In this document: positions 4,632 through 19,494 of the stretch, one piece after another
How positions within the stretch are numbered: position 1 is the stretch's first letter
Layout: each line of letters opens with the position of its first letter
From: Chiloscyllium plagiosum
Taxonomy: Eukaryota
Assembly: GCF_004010195.1 (NCBI RefSeq)
Contig: NC_057718.1
Location: forward strand, 96,557,765 to 96,579,090
DNA: 21,326 nt
Reading direction: 5' to 3'
Made by a program: the position numbers and the translations under genes
Notes under the pieces: generated by a model
Databases searched by the model: none
Told to the model about the DNA's origin: nothing
What the model saw: only the letters and a program-made list of their open reading frames with translations

Positions 4632-5425
4632 ATTGATTGATTTATTGTCACATGTACCTAAGTACAGTGAAAACCTTTGTTTATGAGCAGTATAGGCAGA
4701 TCATAGTAACCAAGAATATACAGATCAAAAAGACTTCGACAAAGACCTACAGGCGACTTTGCACAGGGTATGCGCCAGGCGGTATCAATGTTAGCAAGAT
4801 CAGCAATATTTGAGGCTACAGAGTTCATTTCACAATTTAATAATGGCTGGGAAGAAGCTGTTCTTGAACCCACTGGTGCATGTGTTCAAGCTTCTGTATC
4901 TTCTGCCTGATGGAAGAGGTTGTGGGAGAGCATTGCCGGGGTGGGATGGGTCTTTGATAATGTTAGCAGCCTTTCCACTGCAATGAACCGTGTAAATGGA
5001 ATCCATGGATGGAAGCTTGGCTTCCAGATGGCTTGGGCTGTGCACACTGCCTTCTGCAGTTTCTGACTGTCTTGGGCAGAGCAGTTGCTGTACTAAGCCA
5101 CTCTGCATCCTGCAGAAGTTGGTGAGGGTCCTTATGGACATGGAAAAAGTGAGGACTGCAGATGCTGGAGACTTGAGTCAAAAAGTGTGGCGCTGGAAAA
5201 GCACAGTCAGTCAGGCAGCAGCCGAGGAACAGGAGAGTCAAATTTTCAGGCATTCATGAAGAAGGGCTTATGCCCAAAACTTCAACTTTCCTGCTCTTCC
5301 GATGCTGCCTGGCCTGCTGTGCTTTTCCAGAGCCACACTTTTCGACTTGGTCCTTATGGACATGCAAACTTCCTGAGCCACCTGAGGAAGAAGAGAAATT
5401 GTTGTGCCTTCCTCACTGTCGCATC
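4632..5425 (-). mobile_element. Rex1/Babar-type LINE 3' fragment
   Basis: KAANIIKDPSHPGNALPQPLPSGRRYRSL..FKNSFFPAIIKL and decayed KKAQQ.LFFLR.LRKF; tail ttgattgatttattgtcacatgtac. Confidence 0.8.
5143..5348. mobile_element. Head-to-head inverted dimer of family 1 repeat with perfect 16-bp TSD
   Basis: ggtccttatggacatg at 5127-5142 and 5349-5364; left arm minus with tail, right arm plus without tail. Confidence 0.9.
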
Positions 5426-5774: not shown

Positions 5775-6460
5775 AAGATAAGTGCTAGGAGCAGGAGTAG
5801 GCCACTCAGCCCCTTGAGCCTGTACTTCCATTTGAAACGAGCATGGCTGATCTCATCCCAGCTCCACTGTCCTTGCTGTTGTCCATAACCTTTCAAACCC
5901 ATTACGAATTAAAAATCCTAAAGCTATGACCTCTCATTCTATACCACCTGCATCATGAAGCCTCCTTTCCACATCTACTTTGAGCATCTTAATTAGATTG
6001 TAGAATCCCTACAGCATGGAAACAGGCCATTCAGCCCATTGAGTCTACATTGACCCTCTGAAGAGCATCCCATCCAGACCCAGCCTCTTACCCCATCTCC
6101 GTAACCTTGCGTTCCCTACAGCCAATCCATCTACCCTGCACACCTTTGGACTGTGGGAGGAAACCGGAGCACCCCAAGCAGATGCGGGTGAGAACATGCA
6201 AACTCCACACAGACAATCGCCCGAGGGTGGAATCAAACCCAGGTCCCTGGCGCTGTGAGGCAGCAGTACTAACCACTGAGCCACTGTGCCAATAAACCAT
6301 TGCTTCTCAGTTTTCTGAACTCTGGAGAATGTAGGCCTAACCTGCTCAATCTCTCTTCATAAGACAAACCGCTCATTTCTGGAATCAATGCAAATACCCT
6401 TCTCGGATCTACCTTCAATGTAACTCCATCTCTCCCCAAGTAAGGGGACCACAATTATAT
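5775..6460 (-). mobile_element. CR1 LINE 3' fragment interrupted by an HE1 SINE
   Basis: Reverse tail aggagcaggagtaggccactcagcccc; WSPYLGRD..LIPEMSGLSYEERLSRLGLHSPEFRKLR at 6295-6454. Confidence 0.8.
5993..6290 (-). mobile_element. HE1 SINE
   Basis: Reverse complement of ggcacagtggctcagtggttagtactgctgcctcacagcgccagggacc through ctgtagggattcta. Confidence 0.9.
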
Positions 6461-7825: not shown

Positions 7826-8097
7826 TTAGACTAGATTAGATTTCCTACAGTGTGGAAACAGACCCTTCGGCTCAACCAGTCCATACCGACCCTCTGAAGA
7901 GTAACTCACCCAGACCCATTTTCCTCTGACTAATTCACCTAGCACTATGGGCAATTTACCTGGCCTGCACATCTTGGGACTGTGGAAGGAAACTGGAGCA
8001 TCCGGAAGAAATCTACGCAGACACGGGGAGAAAGTGCAAACTCCACACAGACAGTCGCCCGAGGCTGGAATTGAACCTGGGACCCTGGCACTGTGAG
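7826..8097 (-). mobile_element. HE1 SINE, 5' end missing
   Basis: ttagactagattagatttcctacagtgtggaaacag..gcaaactccacacagacagtcgcccgaggctggaattgaacc. Confidence 0.9.
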
Positions 8098-8749: not shown

Positions 8750-9220
8750 ATGGTTGGGTTACAGAATGATTCACCAGGACGTTACCTGGGATGGAGTGAT
8801 TCAGCTATGAAGAGAGCCCGGATAGGCCGGGGCTGTTTCTCTGCGAGCAGAGAAGGCCGAGCAGGGATCTGACTGATGTCTTTGAACCTCTGAGGGTTAA
8901 CAGCAGGATAGTCCTGAGTGGAGGGGTAGTAACTAGATGGCATGGTTTCCAGTTAAACAGCAGGAGGCTTTGAGGGGACTTGAGGAAATGCTTTCTCACT
9001 CAGAAAGTGCTGGTTATCTGAAACTCATTGCTTGAAAGGATGTTAGAGGCAGGAACCCTCAAGTGTTTTAAGAACTATTTCAATGATCTCTTGAAATGCC
9101 AGAGCATACAAGACCACAAACCACGAATTGGAAAATGAGATTAGAATAGGTGGATATTTGTTTTGTGGTCTTAGTGGGCTGAGGGCCCTCTTTCTCTGGT
9201 ATAAAACCTATGACTCTTAT
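8750..9220 (+). mobile_element. CR1 LINE 3' fragment
   Basis: Decayed VQ..FTRTLPGME.FSYEE..DRPGLFLCEQRRPSRDL..RGDLRKCFLTQKV; tail ctatgactctta. Confidence 0.8.
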
Positions 9221-9482
9221 CATATCGTTCAGGTTCCATACTCATTGAAGAGCTTTACTGACATGAATGTGAATAGGGCCTGCACCATCATAGAGAGTGG
9301 ATTTCCCACACTATTCCATGAACTTCTCAGAATACTTCACTTTATCCCTTAAAATATTAAACACAGCTGATTGTTTGGAGAGTCTGGAGGCCAAATCTAA
9401 TTACTCATTTTGCAGAAATATTTAGGTTCTAAACTCACAGGGAATCCAGATGCACTACTGACAACTGTGGTGTTTAAAACTC

Positions 9483-9856
9483 TTCAACTCCCCCTCTCAC
9501 GCCCCCAAGGGCAGACAAGTCCTGGGCCTCGTTTACGGCCAAATCCAGGCCACCACCAACTGGAGGAAGAACGCCTCTCCTTCCGCCTTGAGACCCTTCA
9601 ACCACACGGCATCAACATTGACTTCACTGGTTTCCAAATTTCCCCTCCTACCACCTCATGCCAGATCCAACCCTCCAACTTGACACAGCCCTCTTGACCT
9701 GTCCTATCTGTCCATGTTCCTTCCCACCTATCTGTTCCACACTCCCCTCTGACCTATCACAATCATGCGCCACCTGCCATCCACCTTCCAAGCTACCTAC
9801 TCCTCAGGCCCACCCTCCTATTTATATCTCAGCCCCCTTCCCCCACCCCACATTCC
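9483..9856 (+). mobile_element. Penelope-like element fragment: GIY-YIG endonuclease C-terminus plus 3' UTR, ending at the hammerhead boundary
   Basis: FNSPSHAPKGRQVLGL, frameshift, then LEEERLSFRLETLQPHGINIDFTGF; C-rich UTR homologous to 15835-15921 and to the minus strand of 21060-21326; ends cccacattcc. Confidence 0.82.
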
Positions 9857-11728
9857 CCCGCTCGCTACACCGTGGGACTCAGCCGGTGCTCGCTACACCG
9901 TGGGACTCAGCCTGCACTCGCTCCACGTGGGAATCAGCCCACGCTCGCTCCTCCGTGGGACTCTGCCGGCGGTCGCTCCTCCGTGGGACTCTGCCGGCGG
10001 TCGCTCCTCCGTGGGACTCTGCCGGCGGTCGCTCCACCGTGGGACTCTGCCGGCGGTCGCTCCACCGTGGGACTCTGCCGGCGGTCGCTCCACCATGGGA
10101 CTCAGCCTGTGCTCGCTACACCGTGTGACTCAGCCCGCGCTCTTGCTACACCGTGGGGCTCTGCCTGCAGTCGCTACATCGTGGGACTCAGCCCGCGCTC
10201 GCTCCACCGTGGGACTCAGCCCGCGCTCGCCACACCGTGGGACTCTGCCTGCACTCGCTACATCGTGGGACTCTGCCTGCGCTCGCCACACCGTGGGACT
10301 CTGCCTGCGCTCGCTACATCGTGGGACTCTGCCTGCGCTCGCTACATCGTGGGACTCTGCCTGCGCTCGCTACATCGTGGGACTCAGCCCGCGCTCGCTC
10401 CACCGTGGGACTCTGCCCGCGCTCGCTACATCGTGGGACTCTGCCTGCGCTCGCCACACCGTGGGACTCTGCCTGCGCTCGCTCCACCGTGGGACTCAGC
10501 CCGCGCTCGCTCCACCGTGGGACTCAGCCTGCGCTCGCTCCACCGTGGGACTCTGCCTGCGCTCGCTACACCGTGGGACTCAGTCTGCGCTCGCTCCACT
10601 GTGGGACTCAGCCCGGGCTCGCTCCACCGTGGGACTCTGCCTGCGCTCACTTCACCGTGGGACTCTGCCTGCGCTCGCTCCACCGTGGGACTCTGCCTGC
10701 GCTCGCTCCACCGTGGGACTCAGTCTGCGCTTGCTCCACCGTGGGATTCAGCCTGCGCTCGCTACACCGTGGGACTCAGTCTGCGCTCGCTCCACATGGG
10801 ACTCTGCCTACGCTCGCTACACCGTGGGACTCTGCCTGCGCTCGCTTCACGTGGGACTCTGCCTGCGCTCGCTCCACCGTGGGACTCAGTCTGCGCTCGC
10901 TCCACCGTGGGACTCAGTCTGCGCTCGCTCCACTGTGGGACTCAGCCCGCGCTCGCTCCACCATGGGACTCAGTCTGCGCTCGCTACACCGTGGGACTCA
11001 GCCCGCGCTCGCTCCACTGTGGGACTCAGTCTGCGCTCGCTCCACCGTGGGACTCAGTCTGCGCTCGCTCCACTGTGGGACTCTGCCTGCACTCGCTTCA
11101 CGTGGGACTCAGCCTGCGCTCGCTCCACCGTGTGACTCAGTCTGCGCTCGCTACACCGTGGGACTCAGCCCGCGCTCGCTCCACCATGGGACTCAGTCTG
11201 CGCTCGCTCCACCGTGGGACTCAGTCTGCGCTCGCTCCACTGTGGGACTCTGCCTGCACTTGCTTCACGTGGGACTCAGCCCGCGCTCGCTCCACCGTGG
11301 GACTCAGTCTGCGCTCGCTCCACCGTGGGACTCAGCCCGCGCTCGCTCCACCATGGGACTCAGTCTGCGCTCACTCCACGGTGGGACTCTGCCTGTGCTC
11401 GCTCCACCGTGGGACTCAGTCTGCGCTCGCTACACCGTGGGACTCAGCACGCGCTCGCTCCACCATGGGACTCAGTCTGCGCTCGCTCCACCGTGGGACT
11501 CTGCCTGCACTCGCTCCACGTGGGACTCAGCCCGCGCTCGCTCCACCATGGGACTCAGTCTGCGCTCGCTCCACTGTGGGACTCTGCCTGCACTCGCTTC
11601 ACGTGGGATTCAGCCTGCGCTCGCTCCACCGTGAGACTCAGCCTGCGCTGGCTCCGCCATGGGACTCAGTCGGTGCTCACTCCGCCGTGGGACTCTGTGC
11701 GCACTCACTCCACTGTGGGACTCAGCCT
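9857..11728. repeat. CpG-rich 28-bp minisatellite (VNTR), about 67 units
   Basis: Unit gtgggactc(a/t)gcctgcgctcgctccacc in tandem with no spacers; occasional 27-bp variants. Confidence 0.97.
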
Positions 11729-11899
11729 CCAGTGTACTTCCTATTAAGCCCCATCCCAGGATCTTTTTTATTTCAATCAAGCCATCGCTTGGTTTTCTAA
11801 TTTTGCATCATCACAGGCCCTCATCATCAGTGTCAGTTCCTATAACGGGAACTATGCAGGACTGGTACCTTTTCGCTGTACTCCTGCACTCAAAGGCAT

Positions 11900-12780
11900 G
11901 TGTCAATAAGGTCTAAATCTAAATGTGAACTCTATCAACATCTTTCTTGAAAGTCTCCAATGTTTAGGGCTTCAATAGTATTCCGCGACAGAGAATTCCA
12001 CAAGTGTCCACCATTTTCTGGGTGAACAAATTCCTACTCATCTCTATCTTAAATGTCAACCCCTTATCTTTAGACTGTTACACTGGATGCTGGGTTTCCT
12101 GATCAATATGAACCTCCTTCCTGCATCGACTCTGTCTAATCCTGTCATAATTTTACAGGTTCCTATGAGATTCCTCCCTAATTCTTCTAAACAAGTGGTG
12201 GAGGCTGGTACAATTGCAACAATTTAAGAGGCATTTGGATGGGTATATGAATAGGAAGGGTTTGGAGGGATGTGGGCTGGGTGCTGACAGGTGAGACTAG
12301 ATTGGATTGGGATATCTGGTCAGCATGGATGAGTTGGACCGAAGGGTCTGTACATCTCTATGACTCTATGACTCTATGTAGGGTGAACCAACACAGTCTC
12401 CCTCAGGATGCCAGTCACACCATCTCAGAACTCAGTCTGGTAAAAATTCATTGCACTCCCTCCACATTGAGAACATCCTTCCTGAGATAAGGAGACCAAA
12501 GTTACGCTCAGTGCTTTGGGTGTGGTCTCATCAAGGCCCTGTATAATTGCAGCAAGATATCCCTCCTACTGTACTCAGACCCTATGATGGCTAACCTACC
12601 ATTTACCTCCTTCACCACCTGCTGTACTTGCTTGGGTAGTTTCAGCGACCTGTGTATGATGCCACTGAGGTCTTGTTGCACCTCCTCTTTCTGAATCGAT
12701 GGCCTTCAGATAATAATCTGTCTTCCTTTTTAAGCCACTAAGCTGATCCTTCATTCTAGTTCGCATCACTATCATTAACA
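11900..12780 (-). mobile_element. CR1 LINE ORF2 3' fragment interrupted at 12193-12378
   Basis: Reverse-strand cagagaattccacaag..ttctgggtgaacaaattcct; gataaggagaccaaa..gtgtggtctcatcaaggccctgtataattgcagcaag (LLQLYRALMRPH). Confidence 0.78.
12193..12378 (+). mobile_element. HER1-like CR1 LINE 3' end
   Basis: VVEAGT..FKRHLDGYMNRKGLEG, tail ttggaccgaagggtctgt and (ctatgact)n. Confidence 0.85.
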
Positions 12781-12820
12781 CCGACAAACACTTGCTAGTT
12801 TCTGGATGCACATGTAACAC

Positions 12821-13026
12821 CAGAGTCAATAGATGCAGAGCTGGAAAAGCACAGCAGGTCAGACAGTATCTCATATATTCTGATGGGACTCGGCCTGTGC
12901 TAGCTCCACCGTGAAGCCCGAAACATTGACTTTCCTGCTCCTCTGTTGCCATGTGATCCGCCAAACTTTGCCAGCCTCACATCTATTGACCCTGGCCTCC
13001 GGCATCTTCAGTCCTTATTGTCTCCT
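12821..13026. mobile_element. Degenerate inverted dimer of family 1 repeat carrying one minisatellite unit at its centre
   Basis: Left arm gagtcaatagatg..ctggaaaagcacagcaggtcag, right arm gcccgaaacattgac..catctattgacc..tctcct; degenerate TSD tgcacatgtaacac / tgcacacatgacac. Confidence 0.8.
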
Positions 13027-13257
13027 GCACACATGACACACCTGCAATTTTGAGTTTAACGTGAGGAAATAAAAAGAAGCAATCACATTTTAACTCCAGC
13101 GAGTGAAGAGCATTGGATTGCCAAATGTGAGTTCACTCCTGTTTTATCCCCAGATGGTCAGACGGCTCATCACTTATTGGCCTCAGTTGGCTCACTTTTA
13201 TTGTGGGAATAGTATTTTGTTATATAATATAAATAATATATTTGAATATGTTATGAT

Positions 13258-13479
13258 CCATGAGTTGTTAAAGCGTGGTGCTGGAAAAGGCAGAGCAGGT
13301 CAGTCAGCATCCGAGGAGCAGGAGAGTTGATGTTTCGAGCACAACCCCTCTTCAGTACATATCATATGCCCGAATTGTCAAGTCTCCTGCTCCTCGGATG
13401 CTGACTGACCTGTTGTGTTTTTCCAGCACCACACTTTATCAACTCTGACTCTCTAGCATCTGTAGTCCTCATTTCCTCC
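13258..13479. mobile_element. Inverted dimer of family 1 repeat with ~11-bp TSD
   Basis: tatgttatgat (13247-13257) and tacgttatgat (13480-13490); arms are reverse complements around 13355-13367. Confidence 0.87.
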
Positions 13480-13519: not shown

Positions 13520-13920
13520 CAGGAATAGAGAATTTATAAGGTGTGGTCGGTCACTCTGTCATTCAATTAGATCTGGTTGTAGTCTCAAAACATCATTCCT
13601 AACCTCTGCCAAAACCCTTTAACTCCTTTCTGTGTGAAAACTCTATTTCCTTACGCCTTGAATTAATTCAATGGCTCCACTGGAAGAGAATGCTACAGAC
13701 CAACAATTCCCTGGGAGGAGAACTTTTCTCATCTCTGAAGAGTTCCTCTCCTTTCTATCCTCAACAGGGGACACTCTTATTCTTAAATATTGTCTGCTAC
13801 AGTAGTTCTAGTCTCACCCTTACCAAAGGGAACAGTTTCCAGTTTACATCCTGTTAAACCTCTCCTACGATCCTATATGTATCTCTCAGTTTTCTAATCT
13901 CCTACCTGTACAGGCCAACC
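13520..13920 (-). mobile_element. Old CR1 3' fragment
   Basis: Reverse tail remnants (cattcaattagatc) and ggaagagaatgctacagacc..tttctcatctct..gttctagtctcacc. Confidence 0.55.
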
Positions 13921-14102
13921 TGATCATGGATGTCAGTTCCTATAATGGGAACTATGTAGGACTGATACTTTCAATCCATGGGAGGAAGTGGATTTATAAT
14001 TGATTTGGCTTAAATCTGACTTCCAGTCTAACTCTGAGGGTGCAGTGTCATTAATTTGTTTTTAAAAATTGTTCACAGACTGGTATTTATTGCCCATCCG
14101 CT

Positions 14103-14636: not shown

Positions 14637-15091
14637 TTCTTCCTCTTTGTCATTGCACTATACAAAATACCAGCTGTTAGATCAATATGTTTGGAATGAA
14701 AACTCGTTGAATCAAAACCCTCACTACAGCATCAAAAGAGGTCAGTACCAGAAGGAAAATCTGGTAAAATTTGAAAAAGACACACTTACTGATGTGACTC
14801 AATGTGTTCCTCAATGTGGAGATCTAGTGCAGTTGTACCTTCATTTTCAAGTTTTCTGAACTCTTATTTTGTTTGGTCAGAGTATCGCAACTATCCCATT
14901 TATTTGAAAGACTCTCCCTTGGATTTCCCCACATTCTTATTCTATTTTATCCACTGTCCTTTTTAAAGGTTTTGCTTCTATTGTTGTTCCTACAGTGCCT
15001 CACATTTGTAACAACATCTTGAATCATGGAGTTCATCCAAACCCATTGTTTTTCTGGTTAAGTTGCTCATTTTCTAGTAATCACTACTAGT

Positions 15092-15404
15092 GGGCGGCAC
15101 GGTGGCACAGTGGTTAGCACTGCTGCCTCAAAGCGCCAGAGACCCGGGTTCAATTCCCGCCTCAGGCGACTGACTGTGTGGAGTTGGCACGTTCTCCCCG
15201 TGTCTGCGTGGGTTTCCTCCGGGTGCTCCGGTTTCCTCCCACATCACAAAGATGTGCAGGGTCAGGTGAATTGGCCATACTAAATTGCCCGTAGTGCTAG
15301 GTAAGGGGTAAATGTAGGGGTATGGGTGGGTTTCGCTTCAGCGGGTCGGTGTGGACTTGTTGGGCCGAAGGGCCTGTTTCCACACTGTAATCTAATCTAA
15401 TCTA
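15092..15404 (+). mobile_element. HE1 SINE, full length, CpG-rich (young)
   Basis: gggcggcacggtggcacagtggttagc, B box ggttcaattcc, (taatc)n tail; many intact CpGs. Confidence 0.95.
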
Positions 15405-16773: not shown

Positions 16774-17530
16774 GCTCATACAAACTTTCCAGGTTATCCT
16801 GGAGTGCATCAGACCATCGATGTTGTTTCTGAATTGCGAAAGTTATTGCTCAATCGAGGAATATGGTTTTAGCCTGTTCAAAACCCTCTTTGTTAGCAGA
16901 ATGGCTAAGCATTGATATACACTGCCTGAAGTCATACCATTTCTTGTTATCACTAGAAGTGACAGTAAATTTATCACAGCAGCAGGCTTAAAGATAACGC
17001 TACAATAGAGAATGGGACAAAGATGCAAAGGCTCCATTATGTCTGTGAATTGAACAAGATTTAGTTCAGGTTCGGTCACTCAGTTGAACTGGGGGCTTGG
17101 TTCAGTCTCAGAATAATAACAGAGGATGCCAGTGGTTGTTCGACATTTTCCCTTGTGCTGTTGTACATCAGTTCAGAATTCCCAGCATTTTCACTGCCTC
17201 AGTGGAACGGTGTTTGCTTTCTGTTGTTCCATACTCTTATTAGACGCTGTAAATTGTTTGACAGCAATAAATCTGGCAGAGGATGCCATCTGCTTAACAA
17301 AGTTTCTGCTGAGTTCTACAAAATCGATCATATTTTTGGAAAAATTAGAATTTGTGTGTCCGCTACCATGTCCAATTTGACTATACAGGGATTCAATGAT
17401 AGGCTGTTTTAGGGAGGCTTTTGACAAACAGGTAGTTCATGATGTCCTAGACCTGTAAAAGGCCTGATTTGTTTCCTTGTGAATCCCAATCTTAATCACA
17501 ATCCAACCGACTGAACTAAGCCAGAACTGT

Positions 17531-17860
17531 GGGGTGGCATGGTGACTCAATGGTTAACACTGCTGCCTCATAGCGCCAGGGACCCAGGTTTGATTCCACC
17601 TTTGGGCAACTGTCTGTGTGGAGTTTGTACATTTTCCCCGTATCTACGTAAGTTTCCTCCGGATGCTCCAGTTTCCCCCCCCACAATCCAAAGGTGGGCA
17701 GGTTAGGTGGATTGGCCACGCTAAATTGCCAGGGATGTGCAAGTTAAGTGGATTCGCCATGGGAAATGCAAGGATAGGGTAGGGGTTGGGTCTGGGTGGG
17801 ATGCTCTTTGGAAGGCCAATATGGGCTGAATGGCCTGCTTCCACACTGTAGGGATTCTAT
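17531..17860 (+). mobile_element. HE1 SINE with internal tandem duplication
   Basis: Standard head and V-domain; ggttaggtggattggccac repeated as agttaagtggattcgccat. Confidence 0.9.
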
Positions 17861-18290
17861 ACATATTATGGTATAGAGCAGGCAATTGGAGTTAATGTAA
17901 AAAGCCAAATCCAATTTTAATAGACAATTGTTCCAATTCTCTTGTTCCAATTTTTCATGTTTCTTTATGATTTGAAAGTAACACTTAAGTCAGGAGTCAA
18001 GATAAAATGGAATTTAGACCACTGTTTATGGAACGTGAACTTTCCTTATTGAATTGGCTATAACACGATTCTGGCCCCATTCGTTGAAAGGCACGGCCAT
18101 TGCACGATTTTCTTTTAATGCAAGACCGCACGCCAACGCGTAATATCAGAACCGACCGTACACATGTTGCCTGGTCAGAGATTCCTGTAAGCAATAGTGA
18201 ACATAGCAGGGATTATGGGTGGGTTCTTATGGAGGAGATGGGGACCTTAATGGCCAGCTGAAGGACCTCCCTTTTACAGACAGGCCTTGT

Positions 18291-18614: not shown

Positions 18615-19494
18615 AAATGAGGGGAGCTAAATGTGATATCTCCAAGTTTGCTAACAAAGTTGGATAGGAGGGTGAAATGTAAAGAGGATGCAGAGGTGTT
18701 GTGATTTGGACAAGTTGAGTGAGTAGGCATACGTGTGGCAGATGCAGTATGATGTTAATAAATGTGAGGCTGCCCACTTCAGTAGCAAACTCAGGAAGGC
18801 AGATTTTCTGAATGGTCCCAAACTGGGGATGGTGAAGGTGCAGTGTGACCTGGGTGTCCTTGTACACCAGCCGCTGAAAGTAAGTACGCAAGAACAGCAA
18901 GCGATGAAGAGGACTAATGGTACGATGGCCTTCATAGCAAGAGGATTCCAGTAAAGGAGCAGGGATGCCTTGCTCCAATTGCACAGAGGAGAAAGCGAAG
19001 ACTGCAGAGGCTGGAGATCAGAGTCGAGAGTGTAGTCTGGTAAAGCACAGCAGGTCAGGCAGCACCCGAGGAGCAGGAGAATCGATGTTTCAGGCCTAAG
19101 CCCTTCATCAGGAATCCTAATGAAGGGCTTATGCCCAAAAAGTCAATTCCCCTGTTCCTCAGGTGCTGCCTGACCTGCTGTGCTTTTCCAGCACCACACT
19201 CTCAACCCCAATTGCACAGAGCCTTGATGAGACCACACCTGGAATATTGTGCAGAGTTTTGATCTCCTTATCTGAGGAAGGATGCTCTGGCAATGGAGGT
19301 GCAGCGAAGGTTTACCAGACTGATTCCTGAGGTGGCAGGGCTGATGTATGAAAAGAGATTAGATCGGTTAGGACTTTAATCACTGGAGTTCAGAAGAATG
19401 TGAAGGGATCTTATAGAAATCTCTGAAATTCGAACAAGACTTGACAGGGAAAATGCAGGAAGGATGTTCCTCATGATCAGGGGAATCCAGAACC
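18615..19494 (+). mobile_element. CR1 LINE reverse transcriptase fragment split by an inverted dimer
   Basis: ISKFAN..WQMQYDVNKCEAAHF..VQCDLGVLVH..RDALLQLH|RALMRPHLEYC..RRFTRLIPEVAGLMYEKRLDRLGL. Confidence 0.9.
18989..19207. mobile_element. Inverted dimer of family 1 repeat with perfect 14-bp TSD
   Basis: ccaattgcacagag at 18975-18988 and 19208-19221; centre ttcatcagg-aat-cctaatgaa. Confidence 0.92.

Follow-up and report, generated by a model that had tools for sequence, protein, structure and literature searches.

How does a single minisatellite unit come to lie between the two halves of a hammerhead motif, more than 1 kb from an array of the same unit? The question is raised by a locus of Chiloscyllium plagiosum that we analysed in a stretch of 21,326 nucleotides (NC_057718.1, positions 96,557,765 to 96,579,090), the whole of which is referred to here as the window. 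At this site CTGATG (12880-12885) is followed by a 28-nt unit (12886-12913), which ends in TG, and then by AAGCCCGAAAC (12914-12924). The original prediction had both the sequence and the coordinates of the interrupted motif right, and the distance from the unit to the end of the array, given there as about 1.15 kb, is 1156 nt by our measurement. The features of the locus, by position in the window, are the following.

9480-9859, plus strand: 3' body of a Penelope-like element (PLE) copy of subfamily A, with a decayed GIY-YIG C-terminus and a C-rich tract, stopping at the 5' boundary of its hammerhead, acattcc (9850-9856)
9859-11728, plus strand: orphan 28-bp minisatellite array of 67 copies (TRF), without host-element flanks
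11729-11875, plus strand: copy 1 of an old local direct duplicate; the alignment enters the last array unit, with imperfect microhomology
12808-12871, minus strand: left dimer arm, the 3' part of a subfamily-B pLTR (profile E 4e-13 for B versus 8e-10 for A)
12872-12885, plus strand: spacer ending tatt-CTGATG, that is, the 5' half of a hammerhead core, of A type, and the letters before it
12884-12913, plus strand: lone minisatellite unit, 28 nt plus the TG common to the left junction
12914-13028, plus strand: right dimer arm, a subfamily-B pLTR from the 3' strand of stem II (GAAAC, 12920-12924) to the pLTR end
13839-13975, plus strand: copy 2 of the old local direct duplicate, partner of 11729-11875

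The bases at 12884-12913 are identical to the array unit at 11382 at 28 of 30 positions, and seven more array units have 3 mismatches to the same 30-mer, in agreement with the 2-3 mismatches first reported. We compared 40 distinct array 30-mers with mononucleotide shuffles of the non-array part of the window; in 30 of 30 shuffles the closest match had 10-12 mismatches, and the real window minus the lone-unit site gave 10 mismatches at best. The unit is rich in G and C (19 of 28 bases, 68%). A 2-nt direct repeat, TG, stands at its two ends, and at the left junction CTG-TG can also be aligned, with one gap, to units that read 'ctgtg'; microhomology of this extent lies within the chance range.

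The hammerhead motif belongs to a repeat of about 135 nt that is the 3' end of a PLE. In repeat family A, a C-terminal GIY-YIG endonuclease is found upstream of the pLTR, as recognised on a paralogue whose ORF gave 0.96 with GIY-YIG clusters in the ESM Atlas; a Pfam scan of family-A ORFs returned matches for 0 of 4, and PDB sequence comparison gave nothing useful. Family B has a hammerhead motif, inverted truncated copies and frequent head-to-head pairs, as expected of a PLE pLTR, its tail is homologous to that of A, and its stems I and II covary. The two arms that flank the lone unit have the B motif in common, and the right arm is assigned to B with a profile E of 8e-31 versus 1e-14 for A and is 78-82% identical to its best paralogues. 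Of the two subfamilies A is common and B rare, so that a pair of neighbouring B arms indicates a single head-to-head dimer event: by motif B accounts for 1 of 91 copies in loci fetched without a B query, that copy being the lone-unit locus itself, and a profile-based split assigns more copies to B than this motif-based one. The lone unit lies inside the 43-nt spacer between the arms. The inverted dimer of the original prediction is real, with a minus-strand and a plus-strand arm, but the best local alignment of the arms now covers only about 30 nt, and the dimer folds at -28.6 kcal/mol, compared with -56.6 to -66.8 kcal/mol for three other dimers in the window. When young, the arms may have paired better.

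Inverted 5'-truncated copies are described as a known arrangement of PLEs (Craig et al. 2021, PMC8557442), and the head-to-head pair of truncated pLTRs at this locus matches that description. What sets the locus apart from it is a 43-nt spacer with non-PLE sequence, most junctions in our data having fewer than 12 nt between the arms. We counted 32 dimers among 188 tail copies in 128 sequences, and spacers of at least 12 nt were present in 3 of the 32, namely the lone-unit site and two that look PLE-templated. The latter two dimers (L068 and L061) have spacers of 48 and 23 nt, apparently made of PLE pieces. On the same count we rejected local templating as a general source of the spacers in PLE dimers, and exact-word matches of spacers to local DNA were not above controls. 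Three more head-to-head pLTR dimers that form long hairpins are present in the window, at 5176-5347, 13272-13435 and 19037-19191, and a comparison of the dimer hairpins with Rfam gave three miRNA matches, all below threshold.

To what extent is the interrupted motif one hammerhead? Minimal type I hammerheads are described in PLE pseudo-LTRs (Cervera and De la Pena 2014, PMC4209133), and we recognised the motif by comparison with the minimal form given there. Consistent with that description, intact copies of the family have the core, an unpaired base before stem II, a G-C closing pair and the palindromic 15.2-16.2 pair, and copies occur singly or close together on opposite strands, as here. 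The lone-unit site differs from it in being interrupted after G8, in lacking the 5' strand of stem II and in its broken palindrome, and its halves probably come from two subfamilies. With TG counted once, 28 nt separate core positions G8 and A9, and the run from C3 to A9 with GAAA is not continuous. Compared with B copies, the 5' strand and the loop of stem II are absent, and with them the G10.1-C11.1 closure of helix II. At 15.2-16.2 the window has GAAACATT, which is not palindromic, and many B copies are identical there. Rfam gave no match to a hammerhead family at the lone-unit site, and folding of the region produced no hammerhead-like arrangement. The unit had been proposed to sit in a hammerhead core and to replace part of stem II; it does lie between the core halves, but there is no neat replacement: stem II is lacking.

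The letters before the core at this site are TATT. Of 67 non-B copies, 44 have ATT or ATTC directly before the core, compared with 0 of 15 B copies; the 5' half at this site thus looks A-type, and the 3' half is B-type. A 5' core is natively lacking in 20 of 35 B copies, from a query that favoured such copies. As judged from these sequence comparisons, the apparent hammerhead is probably a chimera of a subfamily-A 5' half and a subfamily-B 3' half. A clean 28-nt insertion with a TG repeat and the loss of stem II is a plausible alternative, since an allele without stem II has 14 exact matches (1 in the control), representing a recurrent 8-nt deletion of stem II (L177-L188). Ten of the 12 that were fetched lie in PLE copies, none of them B-type by eye.

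The unit itself belongs to a dispersed family. Searches gave 28 matches in 11 places, and wider searches gave 186 matches versus 8 in the control, 116 versus 0 and 1040 versus 0. The junction of unit and hammerhead is found once in the genome at up to 2 mismatches, and a unit followed by the hammerhead 3' half within 35 nt also gives 1 match. CATTCC followed by a unit gives 5 matches (1 in the control), with a PLE setting only at the window's array. A general link between unit and hammerhead was rejected; a further search for one returned 4 matches versus 1 in the control, and these are degenerate hammerheads by their letters. Among 25 other unit loci with readable flanks, 21 have a host-element flank and 0 adjoin a hammerhead core, in a test that is partly circular (L120 gave the host query, L114 overlaps the left-flank training locus, and ten of the test loci also trained the right-flank profile) and that excludes pure-array contigs (L024, L144, L145, L193, L254-L257), a chance match (L191) and loci without a unit (L118, L121, L123). 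The four loci at which no host flank was found are L022, L112, L127 and L253, the last two beside assembly gaps.

Most arrays have common flanks that are not PLE. They belong to a host that is a short element of about 600 bp with an internal seed (L120:610-1157; L147-L176, L221-L252) and at least 1186 candidates. One end has a conserved start and the other a short-tandem-repeat tail after an AATAAA-like motif, and several copies keep the tail side only. From this 3' simple-repeat tail and the one-sided (5') truncation we infer that the host is LINE-like. Among 60 host rows, some of which represent one locus, both flanks are present in 39, at a spacing of 64-1469 nt, at least one unit motif in 33 and three or more in 8; the unit is single in the dispersed element and expanded in some copies, as in minisatellites derived from transposable elements. 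The search for a target-site duplication gave only 5-7-nt matches, within chance, and no ORF of an autonomous partner was found among the 60 rows. The element may already be catalogued; among the papers listed in literature searches, none dealt with this minisatellite family in sharks. On sequence grounds, the family is not PLE-derived but has its seed in a separate LINE-like short element of about 600 bp, and expands in some copies. Minisatellites derived from Alu, B1 and MaLR elements are well known (PMC3389668; PMC6947457) and have in common with this family a single seed in a dispersed element and independent expansion in some copies; as compared with those described, the host here is the LINE-like element of about 600 bp, and the periods at different loci are 26, 28, 30, 34 and 45 bp among the matches listed. 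An origin of the unit from PLE pieces, suggested by the resemblance of G9, T15 and A19 to the B pLTR, was rejected, G9 and T15 being family-wide states in the host element.

The array in the window is an orphan within this family. Neither in the window nor in 10 kb on each side was there a match to the host-element flank at E<=0.05; an earlier four-copy profile had matched the array itself weakly and given one weak partial match about 9 kb past the window end, and host remnants near the array were rejected. Its left edge coincides with the 5' boundary of a subfamily-A hammerhead, 3 kb upstream of the lone unit. None of the best 29 paralogues of the adjoining subfamily-A body stops at that boundary; all continue into the hammerhead or pLTR, a few with deletions. 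On their left, array and lone unit alike adjoin an A-type hammerhead boundary. None of the 25 other loci has this, and it argues for a shared history of the two and not for a general preference.

Contigs from relatives provide evidence on age and authenticity. Twenty runs contained part of 12560-13260, 8 of them half or more of it, and contigs were also compared over the array flanks and the first two array units. No RNA run was listed, which says nothing for or against expression. Organism B contigs from two studies (runs X9 and X14), which cover 12533/12535-13013, span both junctions of the unit. An organism C contig (X17) covering 12887-13006 contains most of the unit and the right junction, with only 27 nt to the left of that junction. 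As the organism B contigs cross both junctions, the unit is old and is not the product of an assembly chimera, an artefact that the original prediction had considered. A further organism B contig (9813-9894) bridges the left junction of the array. Between the window and long orthologous pieces the divergence is about 3-7%, so that the array junction and the lone unit are both older than the split from organism B. Within the unit, organism B has substitutions at 12902, 12904, 12907, 12908 and 12910, and the organism C contig has none of these five letters (both among the differences listed). The five changes fall within 9 nt (12902-12910), for which the candidate explanations are decay of CpG sites on opposite strands, conversion by a variant of an array and a local tree in which the window groups with organism C. 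Between the two organism B runs there are differences at several sites in the roughly 700 nt of window positions 8900-9614, more than close individuals should have.

We consider it likely that the lone unit arose by a single-locus insertion: in a template switch guided by microhomology, a short patch of the neighbouring array, in its ancestral state, would have been copied to the point where the arms of the head-to-head PLE dimer meet. A free 3' end at the B-dimer junction, during or after PLE integration, would have annealed about 1-3 kb upstream, on the same strand, to the ancestral array; 30-41 nt would have been copied from the array, and the end would then have been rejoined to the right arm. 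In the version that we slightly prefer, the patch would be the array's original left junction, 3.0 kb upstream, consisting of the 5' half of the subfamily-A core and the first unit, and the apparent hammerhead would be a chimera; the array's own left junction would later have lost some 15-18 nt. In the other version, the B arm would have received an insertion of 28 nt in its own core and lost stem II. The chimera accounts for the A-type 5' half and for the boundary in common with the array, but would require a 1-nt loss in the patch and a later, unobserved deletion where the array begins. In either version the motif, its core, helix II and palindrome broken, is predicted to be catalytically dead.

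A local source, as originally proposed, is supported by inference from several observations. It is the only lone unit without a host among 11 places, and among 8 chromosome-placed places, in the matches listed, and it has the same orientation as the array 1.15 kb away. We estimate the chance of such proximity at less than 1 in 1000, using a guessed ceiling of 500 arrays in 3.56 Gb. Further support is provided by the direct duplicate, whose copies are 2.1 kb apart, bracket the lone-unit site and are 76-82% identical, with an alignment score of 140 versus at most 75 in 200 shuffles. Its sequence was found at these two places only in the genome, and we read it as a second mark of local copying at the locus. 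Against a local donor, the lone unit carries G at position 9 and T at position 15, the states found family-wide and at most other loci, whereas in the present array G9 occurs in 0 of 65 scored units and T15 in 4 of 65. As the present array is without this pattern, a local donor would have to be the array as it once was; CpG decay has often removed G9 in the unit family. Mismatch counts separate the candidate templates only slightly, the best-matching unit of the local array (at 1.15-3 kb) having 2 mismatches and five other loci 3 (27/30), and the organism B version of the unit has 2-4 mismatches to other loci versus 5 to the local array.

The G9 and T15 states would be explained if the unit had been copied from a distant host-element copy or array (from DNA, or from RNA when the reverse transcriptase jumped in the course of PLE integration) and the array nearby had been captured separately. 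Orphan arrays do occur elsewhere (L022, L112), the orientation of the unit would suit a jump to host-sense RNA during synthesis of the left arm, and distant templated insertions are described in human germlines (PMC5110952). For such a history, two captures would have had to occur independently within 1.2-3 kb, in one orientation and each at a hammerhead boundary, and no second lone host-less unit was seen among the 11 places or the 8 chromosome-placed places in the matches listed; we regard it as rather unlikely. Somewhat less likely again is a larger local tandem duplication, with a breakpoint at or in the array, which would have produced a second beginning of the array that a later deletion trimmed to one unit joined to the B arm. 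Tandem duplications of an array with its flank are seen at L115 and L112/L195, and the old direct duplicate, 2.1 kb apart, brackets the site. At least two events would be needed, at the end of which the unit must still be enclosed by a B/B dimer, and apart from the one duplicate and dispersed repeats no similarity was found between what flanks the array and what flanks the lone unit. A long tandem duplication over the flanks was rejected, tile comparisons being negative except for that duplicate and one trivially overlapping pair. We also rejected the idea that array and lone unit once formed a single array within one PLE copy, into which 1.15 kb was inserted with duplication of 12 bp. The left flank belongs to subfamily A and the right arm to subfamily B, and any partial unit would look like such a duplication.

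The original prediction had offered, next to local templating, a PLE variant with the unit in its hammerhead as carrier and source of the satellite. The left joins of array and lone unit to a PLE hammerhead boundary would agree with it, but the junction is unique, as is the unit followed by the hammerhead 3' half, and the other loci mostly have host flanks and none adjoins a hammerhead core; the family proved common genome-wide without PLE association, an outcome that the original prediction had named in advance as refuting, and carriage by a PLE is accordingly very improbable. Not part of the original prediction were the non-PLE nature of the seed element, the probable origin of the two hammerhead halves in different subfamilies and the position of the array's left edge at a hammerhead boundary. 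An assembly chimera or a chance likeness is the least credible of the explanations. The assembly does contain collapsed arrays and small pure-array contigs, and the same-species run X4 (84% read) has no contig over 12902-12910, an absence from which nothing follows, yet independent contigs of another species cross both junctions and the match to the array lies far beyond shuffles.

Returning to insertion by template switch, which known process would it resemble? Insertions templated by Pol theta, the type named in the original prediction, fit poorly. Their templates are described as typically within 30 bp, with single tracts rarely above 10 bp and AT-rich (Carvajal-Garcia et al. 2020, PMC7165422). 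The lone unit resembles those described in being an insertion of at most 30 nt, in direct orientation, with 2-nt microhomology and a possible deletion alongside, but the nearest array unit lies at least 1156 nt away and its tract is 28 nt long and GC-rich. Insertions of the MMBIR type would fit in form. The MMBIR/FoSTeS insertions described by Osia et al. (2021, PMC8421209) and the one at this locus have in common a short insertion, fixation in the germline and another local duplicate nearby, and possibly also microhomology at the junctions, here within the chance range. The difference is in distance, templates being within about 100 bp as cited there for yeast, whereas the likely template here would be 1-3 kb away.

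The ingredients of this history, namely inverted PLE copies, templated junction insertions and minisatellites derived from elements, are all known. The lone unit, an old and neutral scar in DNA rich in repeats, has no predicted function and matters little in itself. Two by-products are of wider use. The analysis traces a dispersed minisatellite family to a short element that is apparently not a PLE, in parallel to the minisatellites of Alu, B1 and MaLR origin, and it provides a datable case in which a short patch was probably copied from 1-3 kb away into an inverted PLE junction, a case relevant to the way in which these junctions are closed. A broader idea, which we think improbable and which draws its support from this locus only, is that the 5' boundary of the PLE hammerhead is a recurrent site of breakage or template jumping that captures single minisatellite seeds from the unrelated LINE-like element. 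In vitro, a PLE endonuclease is described as preferring an ATT just past the ORF-pLTR junction (PMC11167929). If boundary capture were true, the locus would keep both stages, an unexpanded seed beside a sibling grown to 67 copies, and would offer a route by which minisatellites leave their parent element and hence a mechanism for orphan minisatellites.

Several minor observations were made on the arrays and on other repeats. At L115 (arrays about 1.3 kb apart) and L112/L195 (about 0.5 kb apart) the array and its right flank are tandemly duplicated with the breakpoint at the array, and these duplications are possibly real, possibly assembly errors. The array at L100:1395-3001 switches strand midway, in a large inverted arrangement. 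At L022:1193-1860 an orphan array begins in a LINE-like fragment, with roughly three copies of a different short repeat after it; the units of this orphan array are similar to those at the end of the array in the window. Another dispersed short repeat, which we take to be a SINE type of cartilaginous fishes, is present in the window at 122-418, 1385-1698, 5995-6291, 7831-8097, 15089-15398 and 17529-17868.
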